A stretch of DNA of 33,474 nt from an uncultured Candidatus Saccharibacteria bacterium (GTDB taxonomy: Bacteria; Patescibacteriota; Minisyncoccia; Phycocordibacterales; UBA918), in NCBI GenBank assembly GCA_964423385.1, contig CAYRER010000009.1, positions 1 to 33,474 on the forward strand, written 5' to 3'. The translations under genes and the position numbers were made by a program. Each line of letters opens with the position of its first letter. The stretch's first letter is position 1. The notes under the pieces were generated by a model. That model ran no database searches and had not been told where the DNA came from. It worked only from the letters and a program-made list of their open reading frames with translations. Shown here in pieces: positions 166 to 16,190 of this stretch.

Positions 166-172
166 AGAAGAA

Positions 173-1243
173 ATGGGTATGACCCGCACAGCGTTTGGTG
201 TGGATGCGCAGTCTCTGAGGACGCTCGCTCTTTTCTCATGCCTCTTTGCATTCTACTTTCTATTTTCTTTTTTCTATTCTCCTTCTCCTGCTCATGCCGC
301 TCTCCTCTACTTTGACCCGTCGGAAGCATCGGTCGCCCGCGGAGATACCGTTACTGTTGCGCTCCGCCTCGACACCGATGAGGGCGAGTGTGTAAACACC
401 GTTGACGCAGTCATCCACTACGATTCCTCCATTCGTGCCGTCGACGTCTCGCGCGGGAAATCAATCCTCAGTCTCTGGGTTGAGGATCCGACGATTGACG
501 AGAGTGCACAAACCATCCGCTTTGCGGGCGGGATTCAGGGAGGGTACTGCGGAAGAATCCCCGGTGACCCGGGTCTCACGAATGTTGTGCTCGAAGTCGT
601 CTTCCGTTCCCCGGGCTTCAACATCGGCGGAGGCGCGGGTTCTCCCGACGTGCGCATCTGGCTCGACGACTCCTCGCAGGTCTTTCTCCATGATGGGCTC
701 GGCACGCCGGGTAATCTCCGCCTCCAGGACGCGCTCCTTACGCTCCTCCCCGTGGCCGGCAACACGCCCTCTGATGAGTGGCGGGGCGAGGTGCAGGCGG
801 ACAAAGTGCCGCCCGCCGATTTCTCAATAGAGCTCGCAGAGGACGAGGTAGCGTTTAACGGCAAGTACTTCATCGTCTTCAACACCCAGGATAAGCAGTC
901 GGGCATCGATCACTATGAGGTTATGGAGGAGCCACTCTCGGAGTTCGGCACCTTTACGTGGGGCGGGGCAGATGCGCCGTGGGTAGAGGCATCGAGTCCC
1001 TACGTGCTCACCGACCAGACACTCAACAGCACCATCCGCGTGAAAGCAATCGACAAAGCGGGGAATGTGCGCATTGCCACCCTCGTGCCCGATGAGGCGA
1101 TGCGGAGCATCTCGCGCGACCGGCTCCTCACCATCCTCGTCGTCGGCTCCTTCGTTCTTCTTCTCGGCGGACTCGCCGTCTTCGCACTCTGGAAACGACG
1201 TCAGCGCATTCTCGCGGAGAGCGAGACCACTCCAGACGTATGA
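173..1243 (+). CDS. Secreted cohesin-domain protein with a C-terminal membrane anchor
   Basis: 356-aa ORF. The N-terminal hydrophobic signal ends in AHA. Residues ~43-196 are cohesin-like (GDTVTVALRLDT...SLWVEDP...IRFAGG) and clearly paralogous to domains in 1240..2988 and 3659..4399. An Ig/Fn3-like module follows (TIRVKAIDKAGN). The C-terminal TM helix is LLTILVVGSFVLLLGGLAVFALW, followed by KRRQR. The stop overlaps the next start (ATGA at 1240..1243). Confidence 0.85.
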   Translation: MGMTRTAFGVDAQSLRTLALFSCLFAFYFLFSFFYSPSPAHAALLYFDPSEASVARGDTVTVALRLDTDEGECVNTVDAVIHYDSSIRAVDVSRGKSILSLWVEDPTIDESAQTIRFAGGIQGGYCGRIPGDPGLTNVVLEVVFRSPGFNIGGGAGSPDVRIWLDDSSQVFLHDGLGTPGNLRLQDALLTLLPVAGNTPSDEWRGEVQADKVPPADFSIELAEDEVAFNGKYFIVFNTQDKQSGIDHYEVMEEPLSEFGTFTWGGADAPWVEASSPYVLTDQTLNSTIRVKAIDKAGNVRIATLVPDEAMRSISRDRLLTILVVGSFVLLLGGLAVFALWKRRQRILAESETTPDV

Positions 1244-2988
1244 GCATAGGTATGTTTAGAGACGTACGGCACATCTTCCTTGCAGTATGTATCGTGTTCG
1301 CCCTTCCTTCTCTGGCGGACGCGGCGACGCTCCGGGTGAATCCAAATACCGGCGTATACCAGGTCGGCGGAACGTTTTCGGTGAGCGTCCTCCTCAACAC
1401 CGACGGGAAGGCAGTGAACGCCGCTGACGGCGTGCTCACCTTCAATCCGCGCGAGCTCCAGGCCGTCTCGGTTTCCCGCACGAGCTCGATATTTAACCTC
1501 TGGACGGAAGAGCCCGCATTCTCAAATGCGGCGGGAACGGTCACCTTCGGCGGAGGGTCTCCTTCGGGCTACAAGGGTGCGGCGGGAAACATCGTGACGG
1601 TCACGTTCAGACCCTTGGGTGCAGGGACGCCGAAGGTGAACTTCAGGAGCGGGTCGGCGCTCGCCGCAGACGGCATGGGGACGAACGTGCTCACGGGTAT
1701 GACCGGCGGGACGTACACGGTTTCTGCACCGACTGAGAATCCTGAACCGGAGTACATCACTCCGCCCAATACGCCGACGGCTCCCAAGGTCACCTCGAGC
1801 TCGCACCCCGATTCGGAGAAGTGGTACAGGGAGACGACCGCGCGTCTCGCGTGGGAGGTCCCCCCGGGTGTCACCGCCGTGCGGACGCTCCTCGACGGTT
1901 CCCCCAACACCATTCCGACTATCGTGTACGACGAGGTCATCCGCGAGAAGGTCATTGAAGACCTCGACGAGGGCGTTTCGTACTTCCACATCCAGTTCAA
2001 GAATGCCGATGGCTGGGGCAAGATTACCCACTACCGGCTCGCCGTCGACACAGAGGCGCCGGAAAATTTTGCAATCACCGAGGCCGACGGAGCCGATGCT
2101 CCTCACCGTTCGCTCATCTTCAGCTTCGAGGACGTGTCGCCGGTTGTGGACTACAAGATTCAGATTGACGGGAAGGAACCGGTCCCGTACCGGGATGACG
2201 CCGGAGAGAAGCGGTATGTCCTCGAACCGCTCTCCCCGGGCTACCACACGGTCGTCATCGAAGCGTTCGACAGCGCAGGCAACTCGAGCGTCGCGAGCTA
2301 CTCATTCACCATTGAGGCGTTCGAAAAACCGATTTTTGTCGATTACCCGACACGCATCAACACCGAGGTCATACCAGCCATCAAGGGAAAGACCCGACCG
2401 GGCGCCCGGGTTTCCATCGAGGTGGCGCGCGCGCAGGACGGCATGCTCCTCTCTTCGGTGAGCGGAGCTCCGGAAGGCGGAGACCCGTTCACCGTCCCGG
2501 CCGATGAGAATGGCGAATTCACCTTCATCCCGAATGAGGCATTCCCGCAGGGCGTGTACCTGGTGACGGCAGTCGCGCGGGATGAGTACGGCCGGATGAG
2601 TGAGCCATCCGACCCCATCCGCATCATCGTCGAGCGGCCCGGTTACATCACCCTCGGCTCCTACGTCGTCTCCGCGCTCTCCATCATCATCCCGCTCATT
2701 GCGCTCGTCTTCCTCCTCGCGTTCGGCTCGTGGTACCTCTACCACCGGCTCTCGCTCTGGGTCCGTCGCGTCCGGAAGGAGGCCCTCGAGGCGGAGGAGA
2801 GTCTCACCGTCGAGTTCAACGCCATTGTGAAGAACCTCAATGAAAAGGTTGCGGCGCTCAAGGATTCGCGCAAGGGAAAGCTCACCCGAGCGGAGCTCGA
2901 CCTCATCGGGCAGATGGAGGACGACCTCAAGAAGGCCCGCTCGCGGATTGCGAAGGAGGTCGGAGACATCGAAGATATTCTTAAGTAA
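1240..2988 (+). CDS. Cohesin-domain surface protein with Fn3/Ig-like modules, a C-terminal TM anchor and a cytoplasmic coiled-coil tail
   Basis: 582-aa ORF. Signal peptide ends in ADA. The cohesin-like domain reads GGTFSVSVLLNTDG...NLWTEEP...VTFGGG. Ig-like modules are present (PLSPGYHTVVIEAFDSAGN; FPQGVYLVTAVARDEYGR). The TM helix is ALSIIIPLIALVFLLAFGSWYLY, followed by a charged heptad-like tail (EALEAEESL...KKARSRIAKEVGDIEDILK). Confidence 0.85.
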   Translation: MSIGMFRDVRHIFLAVCIVFALPSLADAATLRVNPNTGVYQVGGTFSVSVLLNTDGKAVNAADGVLTFNPRELQAVSVSRTSSIFNLWTEEPAFSNAAGTVTFGGGSPSGYKGAAGNIVTVTFRPLGAGTPKVNFRSGSALAADGMGTNVLTGMTGGTYTVSAPTENPEPEYITPPNTPTAPKVTSSSHPDSEKWYRETTARLAWEVPPGVTAVRTLLDGSPNTIPTIVYDEVIREKVIEDLDEGVSYFHIQFKNADGWGKITHYRLAVDTEAPENFAITEADGADAPHRSLIFSFEDVSPVVDYKIQIDGKEPVPYRDDAGEKRYVLEPLSPGYHTVVIEAFDSAGNSSVASYSFTIEAFEKPIFVDYPTRINTEVIPAIKGKTRPGARVSIEVARAQDGMLLSSVSGAPEGGDPFTVPADENGEFTFIPNEAFPQGVYLVTAVARDEYGRMSEPSDPIRIIVERPGYITLGSYVVSALSIIIPLIALVFLLAFGSWYLYHRLSLWVRRVRKEALEAEESLTVEFNAIVKNLNEKVAALKDSRKGKLTRAELDLIGQMEDDLKKARSRIAKEVGDIEDILK

Positions 2989-2997
2989 CCACCCGCT

Positions 2998-3657
2998 ATG
3001 CGACAGTACATCGAGACCCACATCGCCATTGCACTCACCCTGATTGTTCTCGCCGCTTCTGCCGGCATCGGCGCATTCGTCGCCGACCGGAATCAGAAAG
3101 AGGCAGAGCGTTCTGTCCGGAGTCTCCTCGAGCGCCAGGAGGCGCGGATGCTCGCGCTTGCCGAAACAACAGACCGCAACGATGCCGATGAGAGCGTTAC
3201 CCCCATCATCAAGGACTGTGAACGACGGAGTGAATTTGACTCGCTCCTCGGAAACCTCGGAAATCTCGGAAAGAAAGACCTCCTCACGACACAGAACCTC
3301 TTCGAGGCGTGCGGAAACTTCGAGCGCGAGCAAAAGGCGCTCACGGTAGGAAAGCTCGAGCGTGAGTTTGAGGTGTACCGGGATCTCCTCGTGCTCCTTA
3401 CGACTTTCACCGAAGACGACCTCGGCGGGTTCCACGAGACCCAGTGGGAGGACATCGTGGAGCACGAGAAGCTTCGGAGCGCGCTCCTCAACGACCTCAC
3501 CAGTATCCAGGGAGAGATTATCTCGGAGCTCATCCAGGGGTCGAGCGTCGGCGGGGAGGCGGTGAGCACACTCGTTGCTGAAGCGCAGGACATCGGTCAG
3601 CGTCTCATTGTGTACGACCGGACGATTGATGAGGCGCGCAGGTCAATCAGCGAGTGA
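2998..3657 (+). CDS. Hypothetical N-terminally membrane-anchored, predominantly helical protein
   Basis: 219-aa ORF, 9 nt after the previous stop. The N-terminal TM is IAIALTLIVLAASAGIGAFV. The rest is charged and helical, with no motif I recognise. G/C-ending codon bias matches the neighbours. Confidence 0.7.
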   Translation: MRQYIETHIAIALTLIVLAASAGIGAFVADRNQKEAERSVRSLLERQEARMLALAETTDRNDADESVTPIIKDCERRSEFDSLLGNLGNLGKKDLLTTQNLFEACGNFEREQKALTVGKLEREFEVYRDLLVLLTTFTEDDLGGFHETQWEDIVEHEKLRSALLNDLTSIQGEIISELIQGSSVGGEAVSTLVAEAQDIGQRLIVYDRTIDEARRSISE

Positions 3658-3658
3658 T

Positions 3659-4399
3659 ATGTTCAGAATCCTCTGGAAAATGCTCTTCCCGCGGTACGCG
3701 GGGAGCGAATTCACCACGGTACGTTACGCGTTCCCCGTGGTTGCGGTAACTGCGGTCCTCGCCGGACTCGCATCGGTTGTCTCGGAGAACAGCTCATACG
3801 TCATTGTTGAGACCGATGCTGAGACGGTCGCTCAGGACGAGCAGTTCATGGTTGAGGTGAAGGTTGCTGCGCACGTGCCGGTCAATGCCGTCGACCTCGC
3901 CATTGCGTACCCGGAGGACTCCGTTGAAATCGATGGCATCGATACCGGCACCTCAGTCATCACCATCTGGACGGAGGAGCCCTACGCGAGGGACGGCACT
4001 ATCCACCTCCGCGGCGGGACGTTCCGGAGGGGGTTCATCGGCGAGCACACCATCGCGCGCATCAAGGCACACGCGACAGAGCCCGGCGAGGCGCGCATCC
4101 TCATCAAGGACACTCAGCTCGTTGCCGGTGACGGCAAGGGGACGGAGGTTCCGACAACGAAGGATTCGTTTTCGAATGTCGTCCGCATCAAGGTGGAGGG
4201 CTCTGACGGAGTCATTTCCGGAAAGGCGGCAATCTCCATCATCACGGATACCGACGGCGACGGCGATGTCGACATCCGCGACATCAGCGCCTTCATGTCA
4301 GCGTGGTTTTCAAAAAATACTATCTTCGACTTCAACGGCGACGGGAGGATGACCTTCATTGATTTTTCAATACTTCTCGCTGATTCCTTCAGGCGGTAG
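3659..4399 (+). CDS. Anchored protein with one cohesin domain and one C-terminal type I dockerin
   Basis: I chose ATG at 3659, 1 nt after the previous TGA. The ORF-track start at 3575 would overlap the upstream gene. TM/signal is YAFPVVAVTAVLAGLASVV. The cohesin-like domain reads FMVEVKVAAHVPVNAVD...TIWTEEP...IHLRGG. The dockerin has two EF-hand-like loops, DTDGDGDVDIRD and DFNGDGRMTFID (nt ~4247..4390). Confidence 0.85.
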   Translation: MFRILWKMLFPRYAGSEFTTVRYAFPVVAVTAVLAGLASVVSENSSYVIVETDAETVAQDEQFMVEVKVAAHVPVNAVDLAIAYPEDSVEIDGIDTGTSVITIWTEEPYARDGTIHLRGGTFRRGFIGEHTIARIKAHATEPGEARILIKDTQLVAGDGKGTEVPTTKDSFSNVVRIKVEGSDGVISGKAAISIITDTDGDGDVDIRDISAFMSAWFSKNTIFDFNGDGRMTFIDFSILLADSFRR

Positions 4400-4453
4400 G
4401 TATTCACTGGGGACAGTGTGTTGATAAGCGGTGTGGATAGCGGGTGGAGCGGC

Positions 4454-4472
4454 TGTACAATACCTGTATACA
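4454..4472 (+). promoter_or_regulatory. Two adjacent extended -10-like boxes (TGTACAAT, TGTATACA) upstream of the acidic protein gene
   Basis: TGTACAAT at 4454..4461 and TGTATACA at 4465..4472. The second box lies inside the 12-bp perfect palindrome CCTGTATACAGG (4463..4474). They sit in the 113-nt gap before ATG 4513/4531. Confidence 0.35.
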
Positions 4473-4512
4473 GGCCCGCGACGGCGATTTTGGGCGAGCT
4501 TGTACGTAGAGT

Positions 4513-6327
4513 ATGAGGAGAAGATACGTAATGGGAAGAGCGCATCGCGATATGCGAGGTTTTGAGTATCTGGCGTACAGTGCGGTTTCGTCCGTGCTTC
4601 TCTTCGTGCTCGTCCTCATTCCGGTTGCTCCTGCGTTTGCTTCCGAGGAAGTAAGTGAAGGAACGATAGCGGAAGCATCGGCAGAACCGGAGAGTGGTGG
4701 AGCGAGTGCCTCGGTAGAAGAATCATCAGGGTCGGAACCGGAAGAAGACGCTCCCGTTGCGCCAACAGAAGAAACAGAAGCTCTGGACCCTGAGGGACTT
4801 CCGGATGGAGAAGGTGAGGAAGATATTTCTCCGGAGGGTGATGAGCCAGGGGAGGATGAAATAATTGAGGAGACGCTCCCTGCATCAGAGGAAGATGTCG
4901 ACATCGTTTCGGATGCTGAAGCAGAATCGGATGGAGAAGTAGTTTCTGAGACAGGAGTTTCTGAAGAAAAACTGGTAGACGCTTCGGAGCAACAGCCGGC
5001 GGATGTTTCGGAGGAATCGGTACCTACCGAAAATGTCGGAACAACTACCGATGCGGAGCTTCCCCTGTCGGATTCCGCAACAACCACCGGGGAAATCTCC
5101 GAAACGCTGACAGACGATGCTCCAGAACAGGCGGCACCTGAAGAAGCTGCTGAGGATGCTGTTCCGGAGCTCGAAGCGAGCACAACTCCCGAAAATCTTG
5201 TCGTCATCGAATCGGCAGAGACCGACGGAAATCCGTTCTCATTCTCAGAGAACGAGTGTGTCTCCGTTGGAGACGGCTCGTTCTACTGCTCATCCGCAGA
5301 GGACGCACCCGCTCCTCTCGGCACCGACCGCGTGTTCTCCGCAGTCGATGCGGACGGCGACAAGGAGATATACGTCGAGAAGGGGGGCGAGCTCACGGCT
5401 GTCACAGAGAACTTCCTCGATGATGACGCTCCGTACTACGATGAGCGCTCCGAGACCATCGTCTGGCACCGGCTCATCGACGGACGCTACCAGATTGTCT
5501 CGTACGACCTTGAGACGGCTGAGGAGACTGTTCTCACAAACGACCGGTACAACAACATGGAGCCGTCCCGGTACGGCGACGTCACCGTGTGGCAGGGGTG
5601 GGTGGGGAACGACTGGGAGATTATGCTCATGGAGGACGGGGAGATTACGATGCTCACTGACAACACCTGGAACGATGTCGTTCCGAATGTGAACGGCGCG
5701 TACGTTGTGTGGCAGTCCTTTGAGGAGAATGCGTGGCGCGTGAAGGTGTACGACACGATTACCGGGGAAGTGACGACCATCGACGACGCAGAAGGGGCGT
5801 CCGTCGAAAACCCGCGCTTCGTTCTCGTGTACGACAGCAAGCGGGAGAACGGCGATGTTGAAACGAAGGGCTTCGATTTGGAGCGCAAAGAGGCCGTTCC
5901 GCTCTCCGCGTCGCCGGCCCCGGTGCCGGAATCAATTCCCGACCCCGACCAGACGGGCGAAGACCGCGCGCTCATCCAGACGGTTACTCAGCTGAAGCCG
6001 AAGACCGAGGGTGAAGAGGATGTGCCGGACGATGTCCCCATGGCGGGCGGAGAGCCGAATCCGACAGGGAGTACGACGACACCCTCCGTTATTTCCGACG
6101 TCGTCATTCCTCCGTTTGATGCAGGGACAACCACCGAGGAGCTCCACGAAGAGGCACCTGCCGAGGAAACGGCGCCGGATACCGGACACATCGAGGATGT
6201 CGTCATTCCAGCCACTCCCGCCACAGGGGATGCAAGCGTGACGGACCATATCGAGGACGTCACCGTGACGCCGTACGTTGAGCCGATAGAACCGGTGGGA
6301 AAGATTGAGATAACGGAGCTCGACTAG
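4513..6327 (+). CDS. Secreted, highly acidic protein with a beta-propeller-like repeat core
   Basis: 604-aa ORF. ATG 4531 is an alternative start, preceded by GAGGAG at 4515..4520. Signal/TM is VSSVLLFVLVLIPVAPAFA. About 200 aa are E/D/S/T-rich low complexity. Repeated blades follow (IVWHRLIDGRYQIVSYDL, VTVWQGWVGNDWEIMLME, YVVWQSFEENAWRVKVYD). The C-terminal tail has HIEDVVIP / HIEDVTVTP / ISDVVIPP repeats. No C-terminal TM. Confidence 0.8.
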   Translation: MRRRYVMGRAHRDMRGFEYLAYSAVSSVLLFVLVLIPVAPAFASEEVSEGTIAEASAEPESGGASASVEESSGSEPEEDAPVAPTEETEALDPEGLPDGEGEEDISPEGDEPGEDEIIEETLPASEEDVDIVSDAEAESDGEVVSETGVSEEKLVDASEQQPADVSEESVPTENVGTTTDAELPLSDSATTTGEISETLTDDAPEQAAPEEAAEDAVPELEASTTPENLVVIESAETDGNPFSFSENECVSVGDGSFYCSSAEDAPAPLGTDRVFSAVDADGDKEIYVEKGGELTAVTENFLDDDAPYYDERSETIVWHRLIDGRYQIVSYDLETAEETVLTNDRYNNMEPSRYGDVTVWQGWVGNDWEIMLMEDGEITMLTDNTWNDVVPNVNGAYVVWQSFEENAWRVKVYDTITGEVTTIDDAEGASVENPRFVLVYDSKRENGDVETKGFDLERKEAVPLSASPAPVPESIPDPDQTGEDRALIQTVTQLKPKTEGEEDVPDDVPMAGGEPNPTGSTTTPSVISDVVIPPFDAGTTTEELHEEAPAEETAPDTGHIEDVVIPATPATGDASVTDHIEDVTVTPYVEPIEPVGKIEITELD

Positions 6328-6378
6328 TTTTCATATTCCTGGCCACAGCAGGGGGTCGCAGGAGCCGCACAAGTAAGG

Positions 6379-6384
6379 GATAAT
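6379..6384 (+). promoter_or_regulatory. -10-like hexamer GATAAT, candidate leaderless promoter for the giant gene
   Basis: GATAAT at 6379..6384, 7 nt upstream of ATG 6392, inside the 64-nt intergenic gap. Confidence 0.35.
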
Positions 6385-6391
6385 ACAGGGA

Positions 6392-9300: not shown

Positions 9301-12300
9301 CGGGGGCTCCGAGAATACCGCGGTTACAAACATCGCGCTCGAGGCGCCGCTCCGTCTCCGCCTCCAGGTGTCGAACGAAGGCGCCGTTTCCTCCGCATCG
9401 CGCGCCTTCACCCTCGAGTACGGTGCGAAGGTGACGACGTGCGATGCGGTTGGAAGCTGGATTAACGTCGGCGCTCCGGGCGGTGCATTCGACCTCTTTG
9501 ACTCGACGAACCTCACCGAGGGGACCGACACGACCGACGTTGCTGTCTCTCTCGGCGGCGTGACAAATCCGGGCGGGAAGACCTTCCTTACACCGAACAG
9601 CGCGGTGAAGGACACCTCACCGTACGTCGCCTCGACGACGCTCACCTCGTCGCAGTTTCTTGAGACGGAATTTTCAATCCAGCCGACCCTCGATGCGGGC
9701 TACGACGTCACGTATTGCTTCCGGCTCTCGACGAGCGAGGTAGAACTCAACGCCTACTCAGTGTATCCGGAGCTCACCACGGCGCCGGAGCGCGACTTTG
9801 AGATTCAGCGGAATTTCTTCAATATGTCGGGAACGTCGCAGACCATCACTGCCGGTGTCGACTACATCGCTCCCTCTGCGTCGACGAGCGCGTTCATCCG
9901 CATCACGAACTCACATCACACCGGTGCCGGCAACAACCTGGGCTCGAACACTCAGAACGCCGACGACGTCACGGTATACATTGAGAATCCGTCGAACATC
10001 ATGAACTCAATCACGTTCCGCCGGCCGGCGGCGGCGACGGGTGTTACCCGCGTCTCCTGGGAAATCATCGAGTTCATCGGCGAGCCCGGCTCCGACAACG
10101 AGATGATTGTCCGGAGCCAGTCGGCGGTCACCTACGGCACGACAGCGACGGCGGCGACCGGCACCTCCGTCTCGGTCACCGACGATGCAGACGTCGTCGT
10201 CTTCATCACGGGACAACTGAACCCCCTCGCGAACGCGACCGGCTACCATACCGGCCAGTCGACGTCCGAGTGGGCGAGTGCGACCGATGAACCGGTCTTT
10301 ACCCGAGGAGCACAGCTCACGAATGCAGCCATCGTGAGCTACGCGGTCGTCGAGTTCACCGGACAGAACTGGGCGGTTCAGCGGAACGAGCACACATATA
10401 CGAATGCTGGCACGACCGAGACGGAGTCAATTACTGCAGTGAATAGTCTCTCGCGCGCCTTCCTCCACACGCAGAAGCGTATCGGTGCGACCCTGACGGG
10501 TGTCGACGAGTTTGGTCACGAGGTCTGGCTCTCGTCAATCGGGCAGATCTCCTACTTCCTCGAGTCCGGTGCGACGACACCATCGGGACAGACCTCGGTT
10601 GCCTGGATCATCGAGAATACGCAGACGACTTCCGGCGCGATGAACGTTCAGCGGAAGAACAACAGTACCGTGGGTGGTGTAGAGCCACTGACCCTCAGTG
10701 TTACCCTCGACACCGCGCTCGATGACCTCACGAATGCTTCCATTTTTGTGAACACGCGCGCGGCGGGCACGGGCACAAACTACCCCCGGCCGATTGCAGG
10801 AGCAACCATCGCCTCGACGACCGCCTTTGAGCTCTACCGGAGCGATACGCTCACCGCGCTCAACTACCGGGCAGAAATCGTTGAGTGGCCGACGGCGGGA
10901 CTTGCGCTCCGGCAGACGCACTACCGGTTCTACGTCGACAACAACGCCCTCACGCCAGCCGACGCGTGGCCGACGGAAGGCGGCGGGACTCTGGGCGAAG
11001 ACACAGTCCTTACCCCGGGCGATAACCCGCTCGGGGAAGGTGACCGCATCCGCATCCGCATGGCGGTGCAGGCGCAGAACGCAACCCTGCCTGCCGGTAC
11101 CCGAGCGTTCCGGCTCCAATACGGACAGATGACGACCTCGTGCAGTGCGATACCGGCAGCAAGCTGGAACACGCTCGGCAACAGCGCCTCCTCGACCATC
11201 TGGCGGGGGTTTAGTGCAACGGGTACTGTTGACGGCACTGAGATCACGACGCTCCTCCTCACCTTCTCGGATGTTGCGGGCACCCTCGAAGAAATCAATG
11301 ACACAGAGGCGAACCCTTCTGCCATCCAGGCAGGAGACGAAGTTGAGTACGACTGGTTCGTCGAACAGAACGGAGCTACAGCCGAGACGTACTACTGCTT
11401 CAGGATGGTGAGCGTGGATGGCACGCCGCTCGATTCGTACGCGTCGACGTACCCCCAGCTCCGCACTGCATCATTTGCCCCGCGAACGCAGAATTGGCGC
11501 TGGTACGACGATGAGGGAAGCGTGACGCCTGCGGTTGCGCTCGAAGGGGAGAATGTCTCTCCGCCGAACATTCCGAACGGGGGAGCGGTGAAGCTCCGCA
11601 TCACGGTGAAGGAAACGAAGAATATCGCCCGCGAGGATGCGCGGTTCAAGCTCCAGTATTCCGAGTCGGCAAGTTTTTCTCCGGTGTTCGATGTTGTTGC
11701 AACCTCGACGTGCACTGCAACCTCGACATGGTGCTACGCAAACGGCGGCGGCGTCGACAACGGGGTCATTCCGAGCAAGCTCCTCACCGATGCAGATGCG
11801 TGCTCCGGCGGAGTCGGGGACGGCTGCGGAACCCACAACGAATCTCCAGACGTCAAAACGGGCTTCCGTCACGAAGGTCTCGCCGCGACCGAGTACGAGT
11901 TCACCATTCAGTCGGCGGGTCCTCGGGTGAATCGCGTGTACTACTTCCGCCTCTATGACACCACCGATGGTATCCCGGTTTCTGCACATACAGGCGAGTC
12001 GTACCCGTCCCTGGTTACCGAGGGTGCAAGTCTCAACTTCACCATGGGAGGTCTCACCTCCGGACAGTCCATCGAGGGCGTCGTGCTCGATATCGACACG
12101 ACACCGACAACCATCCCGTTCGGCGTTCTCTCGCCGGGTGCGGCGCTCGAGGGCGCCCACCGGCTCTCGGTTGACACAAATGGTACCGAGGGATATCAGC
12201 TTTTCATGACGATGACGGGTGATCTCACGACGGCGGGCGGCGCGACCATAAGCCAGGTGACCGGCACGAACGCCGCGCCGCTCTCCTGGGATGCCGGGTG

Positions 12301-12550
12301 TGCCGCGGATGCTCCGAGCTGCTTCGGGTACCACACCGGCGATGACACGCTCGAGGGCGGCTCGACCCGGTTCTCGGCAATCGACACCTACGCACGCCTC
12401 TCGACGACGACGCTCGATGAGGTTTCCTACAGCTCCCAGCCGGCCGCGGGCGACACAACCGATATCGTATTCCGGATACTCATCCGCGATTTGCAAGACG
12501 CCGGAATCTATGAGACTAATATTGAGTACATCTCAGTCCCCATCTTCTAG
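6392..12550 (+). CDS. Giant (2052 aa) secreted multidomain surface protein: Asp-box propeller-like N-terminus, repeated beta-sandwich modules, WxL-like C-terminus
   Basis: Uninterrupted 6159-nt ORF. Signal peptide ends in AEA. A BNR/Asp-box motif SKTTDGGANW is at 6650..6679. Two module types are present, A x2 and B x4. B modules start QTHYHWRNDNG (8186), QTRYHFRNDNG (9242), QTHYRFYVDNN (10913) and QNWRWYDDEG (11489). The C-terminal ~173 aa (12029..12547) resembles a WxL domain (IPFGVLSPG...LSVDTNGTEGYQLFMT...YETNIEYISVPIF). Confidence 0.9.
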   Translation: MGGMHSSRFRRCRKITAGALALLSVFSSVWPGLIRNAPQAEAAQVAVDTSVNVTATSHLLVGAQSVFVNDQTGYKFYRDSTGICVYSKTTDGGANWNAAVTVDAQTDCISVQVWYDRWTPGGTGTYIHIVTMDTSVDDLFYNRLDTNGDTLLMGSAPVDASVNSGNSTATFASGANAPSITKGTDGTIYLAANDATDSYVVECSASCNLQASWTETGTRPQDLANDYSILVPLASGDIMLINRDISLEDIRSKIWNNSSWSASWATIDANATDNTTYDGGLAATVSSTTPGVVYLAYTADNATLGTDDDVRVARYRGGSWTAGTDVIANNASRAITGVAIGIDAANDDVYVAYSARTTAGTAGTGNVYWKWATTSMQNWSAEQGPVNTSGADDIYGIDLNNVSDQRLLVSWYEATEDYIYADTIADIFPGIHASSSGTQTATVFASTSNVYLGGKFLLYNTYKPIDVTGITLTESGTIDGSTNIANVKLLYESDTVAPYDCATNTYDGTESQFGSTDGNGFSGADGTSAFTGTSVTVSTSSAMCVHVIFDVLDNTENGATIDISIANPTTDITATGPTGPATAQNISGTTQVLNDEPTQTHYHWRNDNGTEAGATSRTGGVEDTSLTALQQGTPVRLRLQVSNEGGSSTPSLQYRLEYAQTSGTCDAATGWTDVGATGGDFDMYDSSNLTDGTDTTDIALGSLGAVTNPGGKTFLTPNGGVKDTSSQTANILLSSTQFTELEYSIVASTSATEGNTYCFRATDKGNPLFLYSQWGRATIAADVLVSATGTQTATTNLPATNFYVGGAYVITENTGSRNVTGITISEAGTVDGATDLENIRLYYELDTSVPYNCASESYGGNEAQYGATSTAFSSANGTSTFTGSVAISTTATMCVYVVLNTTATAQNGETVNIVIESPSTNVVVSGGGTVSPATTRDITGETTLQGAVLTQTRYHFRNDNGSEAAATSATGGSENTAVTNIALEAPLRLRLQVSNEGAVSSASRAFTLEYGAKVTTCDAVGSWINVGAPGGAFDLFDSTNLTEGTDTTDVAVSLGGVTNPGGKTFLTPNSAVKDTSPYVASTTLTSSQFLETEFSIQPTLDAGYDVTYCFRLSTSEVELNAYSVYPELTTAPERDFEIQRNFFNMSGTSQTITAGVDYIAPSASTSAFIRITNSHHTGAGNNLGSNTQNADDVTVYIENPSNIMNSITFRRPAAATGVTRVSWEIIEFIGEPGSDNEMIVRSQSAVTYGTTATAATGTSVSVTDDADVVVFITGQLNPLANATGYHTGQSTSEWASATDEPVFTRGAQLTNAAIVSYAVVEFTGQNWAVQRNEHTYTNAGTTETESITAVNSLSRAFLHTQKRIGATLTGVDEFGHEVWLSSIGQISYFLESGATTPSGQTSVAWIIENTQTTSGAMNVQRKNNSTVGGVEPLTLSVTLDTALDDLTNASIFVNTRAAGTGTNYPRPIAGATIASTTAFELYRSDTLTALNYRAEIVEWPTAGLALRQTHYRFYVDNNALTPADAWPTEGGGTLGEDTVLTPGDNPLGEGDRIRIRMAVQAQNATLPAGTRAFRLQYGQMTTSCSAIPAASWNTLGNSASSTIWRGFSATGTVDGTEITTLLLTFSDVAGTLEEINDTEANPSAIQAGDEVEYDWFVEQNGATAETYYCFRMVSVDGTPLDSYASTYPQLRTASFAPRTQNWRWYDDEGSVTPAVALEGENVSPPNIPNGGAVKLRITVKETKNIAREDARFKLQYSESASFSPVFDVVATSTCTATSTWCYANGGGVDNGVIPSKLLTDADACSGGVGDGCGTHNESPDVKTGFRHEGLAATEYEFTIQSAGPRVNRVYYFRLYDTTDGIPVSAHTGESYPSLVTEGASLNFTMGGLTSGQSIEGVVLDIDTTPTTIPFGVLSPGAALEGAHRLSVDTNGTEGYQLFMTMTGDLTTAGGATISQVTGTNAAPLSWDAGCAADAPSCFGYHTGDDTLEGGSTRFSAIDTYARLSTTTLDEVSYSSQPAAGDTTDIVFRILIRDLQDAGIYETNIEYISVPIF
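7700..9811 (+). repeat. Intragenic tandem duplication of a ~1056-nt (352-codon) A+B two-domain supermodule
   Basis: GTQTAT begins unit 1 at 7700 and unit 2 at 8756. The Q(T)(H/R)YH(W/F)RNDNG starts at 8186 and 9242 are exactly 1056 nt apart. The copies are diverged at protein level except for conserved islands such as VTNPGGKTFLTPN (8507..8545 and 9560..9598). Confidence 0.85.
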
Positions 12551-12551
12551 C

Positions 12552-13541
12552 ATGCGCATCTTTTTCTTCTCCATCGCACTCCTCACCGCGCTCGTCCCGC
12601 CCACCGCGCATGCGCAGATTGCGTACACGGTCTCTCCGCTCGTCATGGATCTTGAGGCGAAGGCACGCGATATCATCACAAAGACCATTATTCTCACCAA
12701 CACCGGCACCGTCCCGGTCACGGTCTATCCGACGGTGAACAACATCTCGCTCACGGAGGGCGGCACCATCGAGGAATTCGTCCCCCAGGTCATGAGTGAC
12801 CGCACCCGCTCGCTCGCCTCGTGGATTGAGGTGAGCCGGCGCGGCATCGACCTTATACCCGGCGAGCCGTACACCCTTCCGGTGACGTTCCGCATGAGCC
12901 CCGATCCGGTCCCCGGCACTTACCATGCACTCATCGGCTTCGGGTACGGACGGAACCAGGATGAGGCAAAGAAGCAGGTTGAGGGCGGACGGGCTCCGGG
13001 GAGCATCATCACGCTCACGGTTCCCGATGACAGGAACGAGTTCCTCAAGCTCTCCCGCTTCATTATCGACCGGTTTGTGACGAGCGCAGAAAATCAGGCG
13101 GCGGCGTACACATTCACGAATCCCGGCGATGAGACCGTCGTGCCGGAGGGTGAAATCATCCTCTATGACGCGACGGGGAGGGAAGTCGGCTCGGTTGCCG
13201 TCAATGAGGAGAAGGTTTCGATACCCCCGGGCGGTGAGCACACCTTCCGCGCGTCGGTCCCGGTAGAAGGTCTCTTCGGCAAATACAAGGCGTTCCTCTC
13301 GATTGAGTACGGGAGCGTGAACCGCGCCTCGCTCCAGGATACGAGCTTCTTCTACGCGCTTCCGCTTGAGCGGCTCATTCTCATCTTCGTTGTGCTCGCT
13401 CTCTTCGTTGCCCTCATTTCGTGGTACTTCCACCGGCGGTACCTCGACGAGGATGCTGACGACAGCGACCGCATCGTGCTCCACGTGCGCGAGAGTGCGA
13501 GCGAGGCGAAAGAGCACGACATTAACCTCAAACAGCAATGA
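12552..13541 (+). CDS. Secreted two-beta-sandwich protein with a C-terminal TM anchor, CscA-like (DUF916/DUF3324-like architecture)
   Basis: I chose ATG at 12552, 1 nt after the giant gene's TAG. The ORF-track start at 12291 overlaps that gene. Signal peptide is MRIFFFSIALLTALVPPTAHA. The N-domain reads YTVSPLVMDLEAKARDIITKTIILTNTGTVPVTVY...PGTYHALIGFGYG. A second sandwich reads YTFTNPGDETVVPEGEIILYD...KYKAFLSIEYG. TM is LILIFVVLALFVALISWYF, followed by an acidic tail. Confidence 0.8.
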   Translation: MRIFFFSIALLTALVPPTAHAQIAYTVSPLVMDLEAKARDIITKTIILTNTGTVPVTVYPTVNNISLTEGGTIEEFVPQVMSDRTRSLASWIEVSRRGIDLIPGEPYTLPVTFRMSPDPVPGTYHALIGFGYGRNQDEAKKQVEGGRAPGSIITLTVPDDRNEFLKLSRFIIDRFVTSAENQAAAYTFTNPGDETVVPEGEIILYDATGREVGSVAVNEEKVSIPPGGEHTFRASVPVEGLFGKYKAFLSIEYGSVNRASLQDTSFFYALPLERLILIFVVLALFVALISWYFHRRYLDEDADDSDRIVLHVRESASEAKEHDINLKQQ

Positions 13542-14821
13542 CGTTCATGCGGATACAGTACTGCGCGGCCGTCCTATTCTCGCTCCTCGTCTTCGCGAGT
13601 GCCGGGGAGGCACGCGCTCAGGGCTCACAGGTCATGAGCGTGACGCCGCCGCTCTTCCAGATATCTGCACTTCCCGGAGGCGTGTGGCAGAGCAGTGTGA
13701 AGGTGGTAAACGGCAACAGCTACCCCATGGCCGTGTACGCCGAGGTCGTAAACTTTACGGCACAGGGCGAGCGGGGACAGGGAAGGTTCGTTCCGGTCGC
13801 TGACGGCGGGGAGAATACGACGCTTGCCGAGTGGATCAGCGTCCCCGAGGGTCCGCACGTTGTACCTCCGGAGAAGACGAAGGACATACCAATCCTCATC
13901 GAGTTTCCGGAAGACGCACCTCCTGGAGGGCACTACGCCGCCGTTCTCATCACGACAAAGCCGCCCGAGAGCTTCCCGGAGGCACTCGCCGTCCGCACGT
14001 CGCAGGCGGTCACCGCGCTCGTCTTCGCCCGCATCGAGGGCGACGTGGAGGAGAGCGGTTCCATCCGCGAATTCCGCGTGGAGCATACCTTCGTCCAAAC
14101 TCCTGAAGCAGAATTTTCTCTCCGGTTTGAAAACAAGGGGAACGTTCACCTCCAGCCCCGGGGAACCATCACCATCACCAATATGTGGGGAACGGAGCGC
14201 GGGGCCATCCCCATCAACCACCAGTCGCACTTCGGGAACGTTCTCCCGGGAAGCATCCGCGATTTCCGCTTCACGTGGCAGAGCGACCTCTCATTCACCG
14301 ATGTCGGCCGCTACCGAGCCGAAGTGACTCTCGGGTACGGAGAGAACGGCGTGAAGAGCGTGAGCTCGGTGACGTACTTCTGGGTTGTACCGGTGAAGAT
14401 CACCCTCGTGACGCTCGGCACCATTCTCGCGTTCATCCTTGCCATTGTCTTTATGGTGAAGGCGTACGTACGGCGGATGCTCCTCCTCGCCGGTGTTTCT
14501 CCCGATGCCGCGGGAGAGGCGTCCCCGGAGCGCCCGGTGCGCATCCGTCCGAAAGTCTCGGCGCCGATTGAACGGGGTGTCCTCGACCTGCGCCGGCGCC
14601 TCGATGCTGCCGATGAGACTGTCGGCACCCTCGCGACGGTGTGGGAGTTTATGGTGCAGTACCGGACGTTCTTCATATCGGTCATTACGCTCATCGGCAT
14701 ATTCATCGCATCTGCGCTCTACATCGGCAGGGCAACCGACCCAGGCAATGACTACCGTATCATTATTGACGAGGGTGACATCGAGACGACCATTGAAGTT
14801 CCGGGCGAAGCCGGAGAGTAG
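13538..14821 (+). CDS. Paralogue of the preceding CscA-like protein, with two C-terminal TM helices
   Basis: 427-aa ORF whose ATG overlaps the previous stop (ATGA at 13538..13541). Signal peptide ends in ARA. Sequence is collinear with gene 12552..13541 (MSVTPPLFQISALPGGVWQSSVKVVNGNSYPMAVYA...PPGGHYAAVLITT; FENKGNVHLQPRGTITITN...RYRAEVTLGYG). The TM helices are ITLVTLGTILAFILAIVFMV and FFISVITLIGIFIASALYI. Confidence 0.8.
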   Translation: MTFMRIQYCAAVLFSLLVFASAGEARAQGSQVMSVTPPLFQISALPGGVWQSSVKVVNGNSYPMAVYAEVVNFTAQGERGQGRFVPVADGGENTTLAEWISVPEGPHVVPPEKTKDIPILIEFPEDAPPGGHYAAVLITTKPPESFPEALAVRTSQAVTALVFARIEGDVEESGSIREFRVEHTFVQTPEAEFSLRFENKGNVHLQPRGTITITNMWGTERGAIPINHQSHFGNVLPGSIRDFRFTWQSDLSFTDVGRYRAEVTLGYGENGVKSVSSVTYFWVVPVKITLVTLGTILAFILAIVFMVKAYVRRMLLLAGVSPDAAGEASPERPVRIRPKVSAPIERGVLDLRRRLDAADETVGTLATVWEFMVQYRTFFISVITLIGIFIASALYIGRATDPGNDYRIIIDEGDIETTIEVPGEAGE

Positions 14822-14870: not shown

Positions 14871-15356
14871 ATGGAACAGAAACATATTGTCGGCTCAGTT
14901 ATTCTCCTCGGACTCATCATACTCGGCATGTTTGTCTTCGCGTACCTCAAGCGGGCAGAGCTGCGGGAGACGACGCCGGCGCCGGAGGCACCCGCGTCCG
15001 CAGCCGACGCCTCGCCGTACGCGGGCATTACGCGCATTGACGCGAAGCACTTTTTTGACGGGACGACCCACACCATCGTCGGCGAGATGCCGATGCCGAC
15101 GCCGTGCGACCTTCTCAACTGGTCGACGCGCATCGCCGAGAGCATGCCGGAGACGGTAACCGTCGACTTCGATGTCATAAACAACGCAGAGGTCTGTGCA
15201 CAGGTGGTGACGCCTCAGCGGTTCAAGGTTTCGTTCGGTGCGAGCGAAGGTGCGGTCATCCGCGCAACTCTCGAGGGGCGGGAGATTATCGTCAACCTCA
15301 TTCCTCCCGGTCCCGGAGAATCACCCGATGATTTCGAGGTCTTCAGTAAGGGGTAG
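14871..15356 (+). CDS. Hypothetical N-terminally anchored small exported protein
   Basis: 161-aa ORF. TM is IVGSVILLGLIILGMFVFAYL, followed by a Pro/Ala linker and a ~100-aa domain with two Cys. No recognisable family. It ends 6 nt upstream of the redoxin-like gene. Confidence 0.7.
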   Translation: MEQKHIVGSVILLGLIILGMFVFAYLKRAELRETTPAPEAPASAADASPYAGITRIDAKHFFDGTTHTIVGEMPMPTPCDLLNWSTRIAESMPETVTVDFDVINNAEVCAQVVTPQRFKVSFGASEGAVIRATLEGREIIVNLIPPGPGESPDDFEVFSKG

Positions 15357-16186: not shown

Positions 16187-16190
16187 GCGG

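Follow-up and report, generated by a model that had tools for sequence, protein, structure and literature searches.

Organisation of the locus

The window analysed here, a stretch of 33,474 nucleotides, carries on its + strand eight tightly packed genes, g1 to g8, whose products all have an N-terminal hydrophobic segment. The eight open reading frames lie where a preliminary description had placed them, and two further genes and a hairpin follow:

173..1243, + strand: g1, 356 aa; N-terminal hydrophobic anchor or signal, cohesin-like domain at about 42-180, Ig-like region, transmembrane (TM) segment 321-339, short tail (Pfam, BLAST, TM scan)
1240..2988, + strand: g2, 582 aa; signal peptide, cohesin 36-148, Ig-like Big_13 domains, TM 476-494, charged cytoplasmic tail of about 90 residues (Pfam, TM scan)
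2998..3657, + strand: g3, 219 aa; N-terminal TM anchor 9-27 and extracytoplasmic domain (TM scan)
3659..4399, + strand: g4, 246 aa; N-terminal TM segment or signal, cohesin-like domain, C-terminal dockerin 196-239 (Pfam, NCBIfam, BLAST)
4513..6327, + strand: g5, 604 aa; N-terminal TM segment or signal, long acidic low-complexity arms, conserved core at about 245-485 with W-rich repeats of about 45 residues (alignment, NCBIfam)
6392..12550, + strand: g6, 2052 aa; giant secreted protein, signal peptide 1-42, C-terminal domain assigned to the Pam-pilin type (internal repeats, profiles)
12552..13541, + strand: g7, 329 aa; signal peptide, two predicted beta-sandwich domains, TM helix 272-298, cytoplasmic tail (AF2, Foldseek, hhalign)
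13538..14821, + strand: g8, 427 aa; g7 paralogue whose extended C-terminal part includes a second TM segment, TM 288-306 and 378-396 (BLASTP, hhalign, TM scan)
14871..15356, + strand: g9, 161 aa; small TM-anchored protein, 43-69% identical in the same position in loci L001-L025
15363..15911, + strand: TM-anchored redoxin, thioredoxin fold, TlpA/AhpC-like (Pfam Redoxin E=8.9e-11), position conserved
16189..16218, + strand: strong terminator-like hairpin with a stem of 13 bp and a T run behind it

Direct reading of the junctions confirmed the tight packing claimed for these genes: ATGA overlaps at 1240 (g1/g2) and 13538 (g7/g8), TGA-T-ATG at 3655-3661 (g3/g4), TAG-C-ATG at 12548-12554 (g6/g7) and a spacing of 9 nt at 2989-2997 (g2/g3). 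The view that all eight products are exported also held. Seven have an N-terminal hydrophobic segment at a Kyte-Doolittle value of at least 1.6, and g6, below this threshold, has a classical n-region and h-region followed by AEA. C-terminal TM segments occur in g1, g2, g7 and g8, with two in g8.

The genes and their order are thus as first described, but eight is not the full extent of the locus. The contig terminates about 25 nt ahead of the start of the window, cutting the locus, and relatives have at least four further locus genes upstream of the g1 position. In close relatives, the space just upstream of g1 is taken by genes for a pilin-like protein of 380 aa and two domains, for a third chaperone-like protein and for a double-dockerin protein. 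Downstream of g8, g9 and then the redoxin gene follow in the Kaiserbacteria-type loci L001-L025; no family match was obtained for g9 in profile scans. The hairpin at 16189..16218 is the probable end of the transcription unit; positions 1-16300 of the + strand have no other strong hairpin followed by a T run, in a scan whose overall number of sites equalled chance expectation. On the reading favoured below, the window carries two-thirds of a conserved locus for a surface filament, namely its downstream portion.

Synteny in relatives bears out this arrangement. In about 25 loci with g7 relatives of 41-64% identity to g7 the genes stand in the same order, and about 17 more, at 26-36%, preserve the set of genes, so that the arrangement is not a matter of chance. 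About 40 Patescibacteria loci hold the whole set together, cohesin and dockerin genes included. The suspected CPR-type host was borne out as well, the organism being an ultra-small, Kaiserbacteria-like bacterium (Paceibacteria).

Cohesin and dockerin proteins and the acidic protein g5

Cohesin and dockerin modules had been proposed in g1, g2 and g4, and profile matches confirm at family level that they are real. Among these three proteins only g2 passes the gathering score (GA) for Pfam Cohesin (E=3.6e-6, 27.6 bits against a GA of 24.1), g1 remaining below it with 18.6 bits. The distant counterparts of g2 all match Cohesin (6/6, best E=3.3e-8), and its tail ends in a motif, ...EELLDKEIEDVRKL.K, conserved in distant loci; its Big_13 match has E=1.1e-8 (Pfam). 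Orthologues of g1 in L056 and L057 are 66-68% identical. The g4 dockerin scores 21.9 bits with Dockerin_1 (GA 22.9) and E=1.4e-4 with NCBIfam dockerin_GC, and its orthologues match Dockerin_1 in seven of eight cases (best E=1.3e-5) and Cohesin in three. As judged by pairwise BLAST, the three cohesin-like domains are paralogous, in agreement with the preliminary description (g1-g2, 36% identity, E=5e-17; g2-g4, E=1.6e-5; g1-g4, E=1.3e-4). Even where the g7 relative is only 32-36% identical, the locus keeps dockerin-ending and cohesin-starting proteins. Between g2 and g4, g3 has no family match in Pfam or NCBIfam, and its orthologues (25-47% identity) occupy the same place in seven loci.

The acidic nature of g5 is evident (149 D+E against 27 K+R). 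The propeller proposed for it is weakly supported: the W-rich repeats of the core may form a beta-propeller, as suggested by an E=4.8e-7 match of 29 bits, where the cut-off is 85, to the NCBIfam beta_prop_Msarc repeat and by TolB-like matches. No propeller was matched by Pfam in 12 orthologues, where the sole match of any kind was one Wzz (E=0.03). In all loci compared, g5 is invariably directly upstream of g6.

Conserved cohesin and dockerin modules are what one would expect of a cellulosome-like scaffold, in which their pairing gathers polysaccharide-degrading or other enzymes on the surface and g6 is the substrate-binding scaffoldin; a faint BNR_2 (sialidase-like) match in g6 orthologues points the same way. 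We nevertheless regard such a scaffold as extremely improbable. No glycoside hydrolase, carbohydrate esterase or carbohydrate-binding module (CBM) was found above threshold in any locus protein, the dockerin-bearing proteins otherwise carry only Ig-like or Cys-rich modules, and g6 has neither cohesin nor dockerin. As noted before us, glycoside hydrolases, sortases and SLH domains are absent by Pfam from the 21 window proteins scanned, and the LPXTG motif from the ten proteins from g1 to the redoxin.

The giant protein g6 and its C-terminal domain

Internal repeat comparison and profiles divide g6 (+ strand) as follows:

residues 43-424: N-terminal domain, with the faint BNR_2 match in orthologues
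residues 425-776 and 777-1133: tandem duplication of about 352 aa
residues 1501-1870, after a unique middle region: two further domains of the 'HY[HR][WF]..D' type
12002-12103: strand region ahead of the C-terminal domain, modelled at low confidence
12104..12547, residues 1905-2052: domain assigned to the Pam-pilin C-terminal type (NF058581, AF2, Foldseek)

Conservation is even along the protein (0.48-0.62 identity to 16 orthologues). Such evenness, in place of hypervariability, is unusual for a host-specific tip adhesin.

The end of g6 had been described as WxL-like, a candidate that we reject. It has no Pfam match even at E<=10, and Pfam WxL was found neither in g6 nor in ten small pilin-like proteins from related loci at this threshold. 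W-x-L motifs are lacking: the W+2 position is variable and the second motif reads Y-I-S. Against 17 real WxL domains, hhalign gave a probability of only 1-2% (P=0.03-0.06). Instead, the C-terminus matches NCBIfam NF058581, CPR_Pam_pilin_C, over positions 3-148 of the 148-position model (E=2e-10), with 40.9 bits under a curated NCBI cut-off of 55; the match does not appear in a scan of full-length g6. The same model matches all 20 giant g6 orthologues. The AF2 model of the domain is of moderate confidence (pLDDT 65, pTM 0.64). In a Foldseek comparison of this model with the PDB, the seven matches that reached E<=0.001 were without exception FimA type 1 pilins, the best at E=2.7e-6. The matches of the model include the donor-strand pilins FimA, CS20 and Csu, archaeal bundling pili and TasA, with no WxL chain among the 50 listed. 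An invariant Cys pair and a C-terminal Y.T.I.YISVPIF characterise the domain; of the 53 instances found, 52 lie at the C-terminus of the protein. As judged by profiles and model, the g6 C-terminal domain is a Pam-pilin C-terminal domain, that is, a predicted truncated Ig-like donor-strand acceptor.

The window itself contains no gene for a small polymerising pilin; one is inferred from relatives. In their small pilin-like protein, of about 380 aa, a highly conserved strand stands between N- and C-terminal domains, and conservation peaks in the linker region and in the strands of the C-terminal domain. Its C-terminus aligns with that of g6 at 99.3% hhalign probability, and CPR_Pam_pilin_C matches six of the ten small proteins. 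The family is large (1611 proteins among 8000 scored candidates).

Surface layers are known on CPR cells, and g6 could be conceived as the protein of an S-layer or cell-envelope lattice, with g7 and g8 as membrane tethers. Its even conservation would suit such a role, as would the near-universal presence of the locus in the clade and its position adjoining housekeeping genes. No SLH or S-layer family match was obtained in g6, though, and PACE-CTERM-PROT, an NCBIfam putative S-layer model, matched weakly only two members of a mixed set of 33 sequences (best E=0.0022). Since the g6 C-terminal domain is an incomplete Ig fold of the pilin type, strand-complemented attachment is favoured over lattice self-assembly, and we consider a lattice very unlikely.

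The anchored proteins g7 and g8 and a probable Pam-type pilus

The proteins g7 and g8 are paralogues (22% identity over 303 residues, BLASTP E=5e-16), and in the g7 model (pLDDT 79.6) a signal peptide precedes two beta-sandwiches, which a TM helix follows, as first described. The g7 family comprises 3483 representative clusters. In Kaiserbacteria-type loci both genes directly follow that of the giant protein, and in the window g6/g7 and g7/g8 are tightly coupled, by a 1-nt gap and an overlap. In loci whose sequence takes in a small pilin-like gene, the third paralogue adjoins this gene or is separated from it by a single gene. The CscA-like character attributed to g7 and g8 stands. Compared with 11 authentic Firmicute WxLIP, their families gave hhalign probabilities of 95.8% (g7, E=6.7e-9) and 97.0% (g8, E=8.5e-11), in alignments of about 230 columns covering both domains. 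Profile comparison thus indicates that they are remote homologues of Firmicute WxLIP (DUF916/DUF3324; CscA).

These similarities carry the argument for a WxL/Csc-type static display, in which the giant protein stands outside any filament and is held on the cell by a strand from WxLIP-like g7/g8, as E. faecium WxLIP holds a long WxL protein, the Pam-pilin similarity reflecting a shared ancestral fold only. With the third paralogue included, probabilities range over 95.8-97.6%; Pfam WxLIP_PGBD is found in 8 of 13 third paralogues, one above the gathering score, and EfmWxLIP1 is the top PDB sequence match for both profiles searched. The layout in relatives mirrors the definition of WxL clusters (a large and a small protein with a common C-terminal domain, and anchored two-Ig proteins), and there is motif-level likeness (D.NGT.G[YF].[LV] and Y.T.[LI].Y....P). 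Against this display stand the WxL comparisons of g6 given above and the lack of an LPXTG protein, and the small protein corresponds to a polymerising Pam pilin in size and in its layout of N-domain, strongly conserved linker and C-domain. We therefore hold static display to be rather unlikely.

The Pam pilus, known from a 2026 study of a cultured Saccharimonadia bacterium, combines donor-strand-exchange pilins with PapD-like two-domain chaperones bearing a TM helix (bioRxiv 10.64898/2026.03.03.709456). The C-terminal domain of the pilin is very similar to the truncated Ig-like domain found in chaperone-usher pilins, and the next subunit supplies the beta-strand that completes it; the chaperones drive assembly while their C-terminal TM helix keeps them in the cytoplasmic membrane (bioRxiv 10.64898/2026.03.03.709456). 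Foldseek neighbours of g7 are RbmA, WxLIP 9i25_C (E=1.2e-8) and the chaperones CfaA, CsuC and Caf1M; RbmA and these chaperones are those that the preprint gives for PamR and PamC/PamD. Like PamC/PamD, g7 has a C-terminal TM helix. The likeness to the Mycosynbacter proteins is one of architecture and structural neighbours, none of the NCBIfam Pam chaperone models matching g7 or g8 at E<=1. We take g7 as a candidate membrane-anchored chaperone or anchor of PamC/D/R-like architecture. The small pilin-like protein also shares the conservation pattern reported in the preprint (linker and C-terminal strands).

Because the pilin C-terminus of g6 and the TM-anchored chaperone-like g7/g8 resemble Pam parts, we favour, at roughly two chances in three, a Pam-type pilus of Kaiserbacteria-like Paceibacteria. 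The preliminary description had named no known locus that joins cohesin-dockerin pairing to assembly of the WxL/Csc type. The core of giant protein and anchors is already described as the Pam pilus, but cohesin, dockerin, WxL and DUF916 are not mentioned in the preprint (bioRxiv 10.64898/2026.03.03.709456). Four features appear to be new: the Paceibacteria setting, a pilin C-terminus on a giant protein, the coupling with cohesin and dockerin, and the sequence link to WxLIP. The cohesin-dockerin proteins encoded in the same locus may act with the pilus parts.

In such a pilus, g7 and/or g8 would complement and hold the g6 pilin domain as g6 leaves the Sec translocon. Thereafter g6 could take the distal end of the small-pilin filament, serving as a giant tip adhesin much as FimH and PapG do, or it could be fastened to the membrane directly. 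Anchored in the membrane, the cohesin proteins g1 and g2 would pair with two dockerin bearers, g4 and the double-dockerin protein encoded upstream. This non-covalent pairing would build a second display layer, which would work jointly with the filament, in all likelihood to attach the cell to a host cell or to a surface. The remaining proteins, g3, g5, g9 and the redoxin, would be accessory; the latter may plausibly serve oxidative folding and disulfide formation of Cys-containing secreted proteins. In L002, a DsbD gene adjoins the redoxin gene.

Gene layout and conservation of the locus

The arrangement proposed in the preliminary description, eight consecutive + strand genes, was recovered at the same ORF positions, and direct reading of the junctions gave the ATGA overlaps at 1240 and 13538, the one-base gaps at 3658 and 12551 and the nine-base gap at 2989-2997. 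The main features of the window, whose G+C content is 60%, are the following:

173-14821, + strand: genes g1 to g8, encoding cohesin-like proteins (g1, g2 and g4), an anchored protein (g3), an acidic protein (g5), a 2052-aa giant protein (g6) and two membrane-anchored double-sandwich proteins (g7 and g8)
14871-15911: g9, encoding a 161-aa TM-anchored protein, and the gene of a TM-anchored thioredoxin-fold redoxin, both found 3′ of g8 in all Kaiserbacteria-type loci
16189-16218: terminator-like hairpin 3′ of the redoxin gene, the only strong one
Elsewhere in the window: housekeeping genes (tgt, uvrABC, ddl, AI-2E transporter, PGA_cap, histidine kinase)

In a promoter and terminator scan, site counts equalled the shuffle expectation and the hairpin at 16189 alone stood out. 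In a hydropathy scan, seven of the eight proteins showed a hydrophobic segment at the N-terminus; g6, under the threshold of the scan, carries a classical signal with an AEA cleavage motif. The described signal peptide or TM anchor at the start of each protein is confirmed. The same scan placed C-terminal TM segments in g1, g2, g7 and g8.

We then compared the window proteins with all ORFs of related loci. The order g2-g3-g4-g5-g6-g7-g8-g9-redoxin is kept in about 25 loci, and the same parts occur, rearranged, in about 17 more distant ones (g7 relatives 26-36% identical). The latter include g5 and the giant protein upstream, where the flank extends far enough, as well as g7 and g8, a protein of about 390 aa sharing the C-terminal domain of g6, a third g7/g8 paralogue ending in a TM helix, a dockerin-ending protein and a cohesin-starting membrane-anchored protein with a cytoplasmic tail motif as in g2. 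Since these parts stay together in both the collinear and the rearranged loci, their co-occurrence is far beyond chance. Several distant loci carry 5-9 kb of unrelated genes, including ORFs of 1288-1769 aa, between the giant gene and the g7/g8 pair (L041 762-9819; L035 4943-9697), so that the module is split there.

The source contig begins about 25 nt 5′ of the window. The genes directly upstream of g1 are visible in two close relatives, L056 and L057, one of them on a 1.03-Mb contig. They encode a protein with a g6-type C-terminal domain (380 aa in L056, 376 aa in L057), referred to here as the small pilin-like protein; a 375-aa protein composed of DUF4215, Big_6 and two Dockerin_1 modules (in L056 28.7 bits, which exceeds the gathering score); a 307-aa third g7/g8 paralogue; and a 614-aa Ser/Thr/Cys-rich secreted protein without family match. 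The small pilin gene is missing from the window, probably because the contig ends ahead of g1. A MacB/FtsX-type permease is also among the upstream genes (L056 4192-9789, L057 1187-9877), and L057 carries an additional 632-aa repeat-rich protein with no family match.

A word-indexed protein search returned 240 detectable relatives of g7, the named ones belonging to Candidatus Kaiserbacteria or Paceibacterota, and a full HMMER scan with the g7 profile gave 3483 representative clusters at 50% identity, the lineage being checked for 40 loci out of this chaperone-like family. These 40 loci, from a scan of one genome per species, all belong to Patescibacteria MAGs except one with the doubtful label Gammaproteobacteria (L043). 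Loci titled ‘uncultured Candidatus Saccharibacteria’ (L004, L007-L010, L016, L017, L020-L022 and others) are collinear with Kaiserbacteria loci and 54-62% identical. The titles of the loci labelled Saccharibacteria or Gammaproteobacteria are probably unreliable, or the contig was misbinned.

The C-terminal domain of the giant protein

The end of g6 had been described as WxL-like. The domain carries an invariant Trp (W96, the W+2 position being variable), invariant Cys-Cys positions and a C-terminal Y.T.I.YISVPIF strand; its second motif is Y-I-S/A, and no W-x-L motifs are present. Pfam scans of g6 and ten small pilin-like proteins at E<=10 found nothing in the C-terminal domain, WxL (PF13731) included, and Pfam and NCBIfam scans of the eight full-length proteins gave no WxL, DUF916, DUF3324 or BNR match. 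Against 17 real WxL domains, hhalign returned a probability of 1-2% (P=0.03-0.06), with a collinear alignment in which both motif regions are paired, and HMM-to-sequence comparisons gave negligible scores (<10 bits). On this evidence we reject membership in the WxL family; a deep homology may exist. An annotated authentic small WxL protein from an Enterococcus plasmid (L044 5032-5748) has T-Y-N-L as second motif rather than W-x-L, showing that a Trp-to-Tyr change at this position occurs within the real WxL family too.

Other comparisons point to pilins. Of the 53 instances of the domain found, 52 are C-terminal, and hhalign matches it to the C-terminal half of the small pilin-like proteins with 99.3% probability. 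Its AF2 model is of moderate quality (pLDDT 65, pTM 0.64; first 36 residues below 50). All seven Foldseek matches of this model with E<=0.001 are FimA type 1 pilins. Further down come CS20, Csu, the Pyrobaculum bundling pilin and TasA, which are likewise strand-complemented fibre subunits, and none of the 50 matches listed is a WxL chain.

Two filaments of Candidatus Mycosynbacter amalyticus (Saccharimonadia), named Pam and built by donor-strand exchange, have been solved by cryo-EM (Troman et al., bioRxiv 10.64898/2026.03.03.709456). NCBIfam contains two corresponding models, NF058581 (CPR_Pam_pilin_C, ‘Pam pilus system pilin subunit’) and NF058579 (CPR_pilus_PamT). NF058581 is matched by six of ten small pilin-like proteins, by all 20 giant orthologues tested (best E=1.1e-11) and by the 230-residue end of g6 (residues 1905-2052, model positions 3-148 of 148, E=2e-10), at 40.9 bits, below the curated cut-off of 55 bits. 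The match appears with the fragment 11858-12547 alone: full-length g6 (2052 aa, 6392-12550) gave no NF058581 match at E<=1, and long multi-domain proteins can thus hide such a domain in routine annotation. PDB-sequence profile searches with the g6 C-terminus and the small-pilin profiles gave nothing useful, and a search with the small-pilin alignment profile returned close relatives only, without reaching the Mycosynbacter Pam proteins.

Like the Pam system, the locus is CPR-restricted and Sec-exported, it has neither usher nor sortase, and its subunits end in a truncated Ig-like domain with paired cysteines, here by a profile match below the NCBI trusted cut-off. Relatives also encode a putative equivalent of the ~38-kDa two-domain pilin with conserved linker: the small pilin-like protein, of about 380 aa, has the size of PamB, and its most conserved stretches are the inter-domain strand (linker) region and the strands of the C-terminal domain. 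In Pam, the linker and the C-terminal-domain groove are the most conserved parts, and paired cysteines are reported (Troman et al., bioRxiv). The locus differs from Pam in lineage, being of Paceibacteria/Kaiserbacteria type, whereas the distribution given in the preprint is mainly Saccharimonadia and Microgenomatia. The pilin domain is here borne by a protein of 2052-2470 aa, in contrast to the single-domain PamT, the proposed tip subunit; three paralogues of chaperone-like type occur; the window genes scanned included no ATP synthase genes; and the conserved locus adds cohesin/dockerin proteins, a putative helical anchored protein, an acidic repeat protein and a redoxin, none of which is in the preprint.

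About 1860 residues of other modules precede the pilin domain of g6: an N-terminal domain, for which orthologues show a faint BNR_2 signal, a tandem duplication of 352 residues and an ‘HY[HR][WF]..D’ domain present four times. Conservation is even along the whole length (0.48-0.62 identity per region in 16 orthologues), and the distal end is not variable. Longer orthologues of about 2470 aa have some 400 residues more, which may be an extra repeat unit. phmmer searches of g5 and g6 against the PDB returned nothing.

From the alignments, we infer that the strand ahead of the g6 pilin domain corresponds to the second strand of a conserved pair in the small protein, and that the last strand of the preceding repeat domain occupies the place of the first, most conserved one. 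Such an arrangement is consistent with an acceptor-only subunit, that is a tip adhesin like FimH or PapG, and equally allows direct tethering by g7/g8.

The anchored double-sandwich proteins

g7 and g8 are paralogues, and the g7 family matches the third-paralogue family with 99.8% probability (hhalign). In the AlphaFold2 model of g7 (pLDDT 79.6), a signal peptide is followed by two beta-sandwiches and a TM helix (272-298). Its Foldseek neighbours are generic tandem-Ig proteins: RbmA is the top match (E=5.1e-9), and the chaperones CfaA, CsuC and Caf1M and the E. faecium WxLIP (9i25_C, 9i1y) score similarly; transglutaminase C-terminal domains are also found. No N-terminal donor strand could be assigned in g7, in contrast to the extra N-terminal strand of the RbmA-like Pam protein PamR. 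As judged by structure and architecture, g7, g8 and the third paralogue are thus anchored-chaperone-like, with a predicted PapD/FimC-type two-domain body and a C-terminal TM helix.

The Pam operon encodes FimC/PapD-like chaperones, PamC and PamD, with a C-terminal TM helix unlike Gram-negative chaperones, and the RbmA-like, TM-anchored PamR, a proposed filament terminator and tether (Troman et al., bioRxiv); the M. amalyticus PamC, PamD and PamR proteins are WP_260763277.1, WP_260763284.1 and WP_260763282.1, respectively. The locus shares such two-domain PapD/RbmA-like proteins at the level of structure and architecture, and the neighbours of g7, RbmA and PapD-class chaperones, are those named in the preprint. 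No NCBIfam Pam chaperone model matched g7 or g8 at E<=1. In distant loci, the small pilin-like protein adjoins the third paralogue, and L043 contains two pairs of a protein with Pam-type C-terminal domain and a chaperone-like protein.

g7 and g8 had also been labelled CscA-like, after the anchored WxLIP proteins of Firmicutes. Neither has a direct Pfam match. In the third-paralogue family, 8 of 13 proteins match WxLIP_PGBD (DUF916, PF06030; best E=1.2e-6), one of them at 28.1 bits against a GA of 27.3; PF11797 (DUF3324) was matched by no third-paralogue, g7 or g8 protein scanned. EfmWxLIP1 is the top PDB sequence match of both the g7 and the third-paralogue profile. Ten authentic clusters on plasmids of Enterococcus, Lactococcus, Lactiplantibacillus, Levilactobacillus and Niallia served as reference set, and the three families were compared by hhalign with 11 real WxLIP proteins. 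For the g7 family the probability was 95.8%, for the g8 family 97.0% and for the third paralogue 97.6%, the alignments extending over about 220-232 columns and covering both domains. The label can therefore be kept as remote homology, not as membership by Pfam thresholds.

The comparison was extended to the WxL/WxLIP (Csc) clusters of Lactobacillales and Listeria (Siezen 2006; Hassan and Williamson 2022, 2023; PDB 9i25, 9i1y). Both systems have anchored proteins composed of a signal peptide, two Ig-like domains and a TM helix, detectably homologous (hhalign 96-98%). Both also have one large and one small secreted protein that end in a common all-beta domain of about 180 residues, and adhesin-like domains occupy the N-terminal part of the large one. 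In WxL clusters, a strand of the anchor protein is predicted by AlphaFold2 to insert into the C-terminal WxL domain (Hassan 2023). The present locus differs by the absence of W-x-L motifs, of a Pfam WxL match and of a small LPXTG CscD-type protein, by three WxLIP-like proteins compared to one in the commonest WxL cluster (PMC10599100), by a CPR rather than a Firmicute host, and by the extra N-terminal domain and conserved linker of the small protein, which resembles polymerising pilins in this respect.

Chaperone-usher pili of diderm bacteria (Fim, Pap, Csu, CFA/I) offer a third comparison. By predicted fold, the C-terminal domain of g6 comes closest to FimA, g7 matches the chaperones CfaA, CsuC and Caf1M, and a large adhesin N-terminal to a pilin domain recalls FimH and PapG. 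In contrast to these pili, there is neither usher nor outer membrane, the chaperone-like proteins are membrane-anchored and the adhesin part exceeds 1800 residues. No usher, PapD_N/PapD_C (PF00345, PF02753) or fimbrial Pfam match was obtained in the locus proteins scanned.

Cohesin-dockerin modules and a possible composite structure

The cohesin-like domains of g1, g2 and g4 are clear paralogues. That of g2 passes the Pfam threshold (PF00963, 27.6 bits against a GA of 24.1); that of g1, 36% identical to g2, is sub-threshold (18.6 bits); that of g4 has no Pfam match and is assigned by paralogy alone (E=1.6e-5), three of eight orthologues matching Cohesin. The C-terminal dockerin of g4 is borderline (PF00404, 21.9 bits against a GA of 22.9), and seven of eight orthologues match Dockerin_1 (best E=1.3e-5). 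Distant counterparts gave matches throughout, for Cohesin in all six cohesin-starting proteins (best E=3.3e-8) and for Dockerin_1 in all eight dockerin-ending ones (best E=1.7e-8). Both kinds of module, as first described, are thus confirmed.

No enzyme, CBM or SLH domain above threshold was found in the locus proteins scanned, the dockerin proteins of the locus and its relatives showed no enzyme domain, and LPXTG is absent from g1-g10, in agreement with the reported absence of glycoside hydrolase, SLH and LPXTG. A cellulosome is rejected, as neither enzyme nor CBM was found in these proteins. The locus is closer to non-cellulosomal cohesin-dockerin modules, with its cohesin above threshold in g2 and paralogues in g1 and g4, and with dockerins (EF-hand-like duplicated Ca-binding loops) in g4 and in the locus partners of relatives. 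It differs from them by the lack of enzymes and of CBM or SLH anchoring, by cohesins carried on single-pass membrane proteins with cytoplasmic tails, and by the position of the genes inside a putative pilus locus.

What the analysis shows are domain identities, paralogy, architecture and synteny. For two assembly principles in one locus across deep divergence, a composite attachment structure would be the simplest reading. Following the Pam and chaperone-usher precedents, g7 and/or g8 would supply, at the membrane, what the incomplete Ig fold of g6 lacks, the small pilin would polymerise by donor-strand exchange with the third paralogue assisting, and the final place of g6 would be either the filament or the membrane. 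Judging by cohesin-dockerin biology, g1 and g2 may display g4 and the double-dockerin protein.

Two wider readings can be proposed. According to the first, CPR Pam pili and Firmicute WxL/WxLIP clusters would be diverged versions of one ancient monoderm system, in which an Ig-like C-terminal domain, itself incomplete, receives an inserted strand from a membrane-anchored two-Ig chaperone or anchor and is thereby completed; the WxL domain would be a pilin domain of Pam type that has diverged, and the Firmicute form a non-polymerising relative or an unrecognised polymerising one. According to the second, the pilus machinery of Paceibacteria would form one physical unit with a membrane-anchored cohesin-dockerin scaffold, the filament bearing a tip adhesin of about 2000 residues. 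The two are tentative, with a probability of roughly three in ten.

CPR bacteria may represent a large share of bacterial diversity, and little is known of how they attach to their hosts. Among CPR-specific filaments, the Pam pilus was the first to have its structure solved, and it has so far been tied to Saccharimonadia and Microgenomatia; the locus would extend it to Paceibacteria, a class larger and less cultivated than any other in CPR. The giant protein would be a concrete candidate for an adhesin on the filament, cohesin-dockerin genes, a second assembly principle, would be coupled genetically to a pilus, and a sequence-level link would be established with the WxL/WxLIP clusters that lactic acid bacteria and enterococci carry and whose mechanism is under study.

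The preliminary description knew of no comparable locus. For the giant protein and its anchors this is overtaken, since the core can now be assigned to a kind of system first reported in 2026. The Pam preprint nowhere uses the words WxL, DUF916, cohesin, dockerin, Paceibacteria or Kaiserbacteria, and its authors raise the evolutionary origin of the system as an open question (Troman et al., bioRxiv). Literature searches combining CPR with cohesin/dockerin or with WxL returned nothing relevant. We did not find described a Pam system in Paceibacteria, a giant protein with a terminal Pam pilin domain, conserved cohesin-dockerin genes within a Pam locus, or profile-level homology between anchored chaperone-like proteins and Firmicute WxLIP.

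Some accessory genes deserve mention. The acidic protein g5 had been read as a propeller; none of 12 orthologues gave Pfam support, NCBIfam repeat matches were weak, and this assignment was dropped. The conserved TM-anchored redoxin may act in disulfide formation, as an oxidative-folding helper for the Cys-pair pilin domain; in one relative (L002), a DsbD gene adjoins it. Further downstream (23160-27316), two genes that overlap by 4 nt sit between uvrB and uvrA: one encodes a histidine kinase, the other a protein of 940 aa that has Big_13 and TSP3-like repeats and is anchored by a C-terminal TM segment. This arrangement also begins in the related locus L001.
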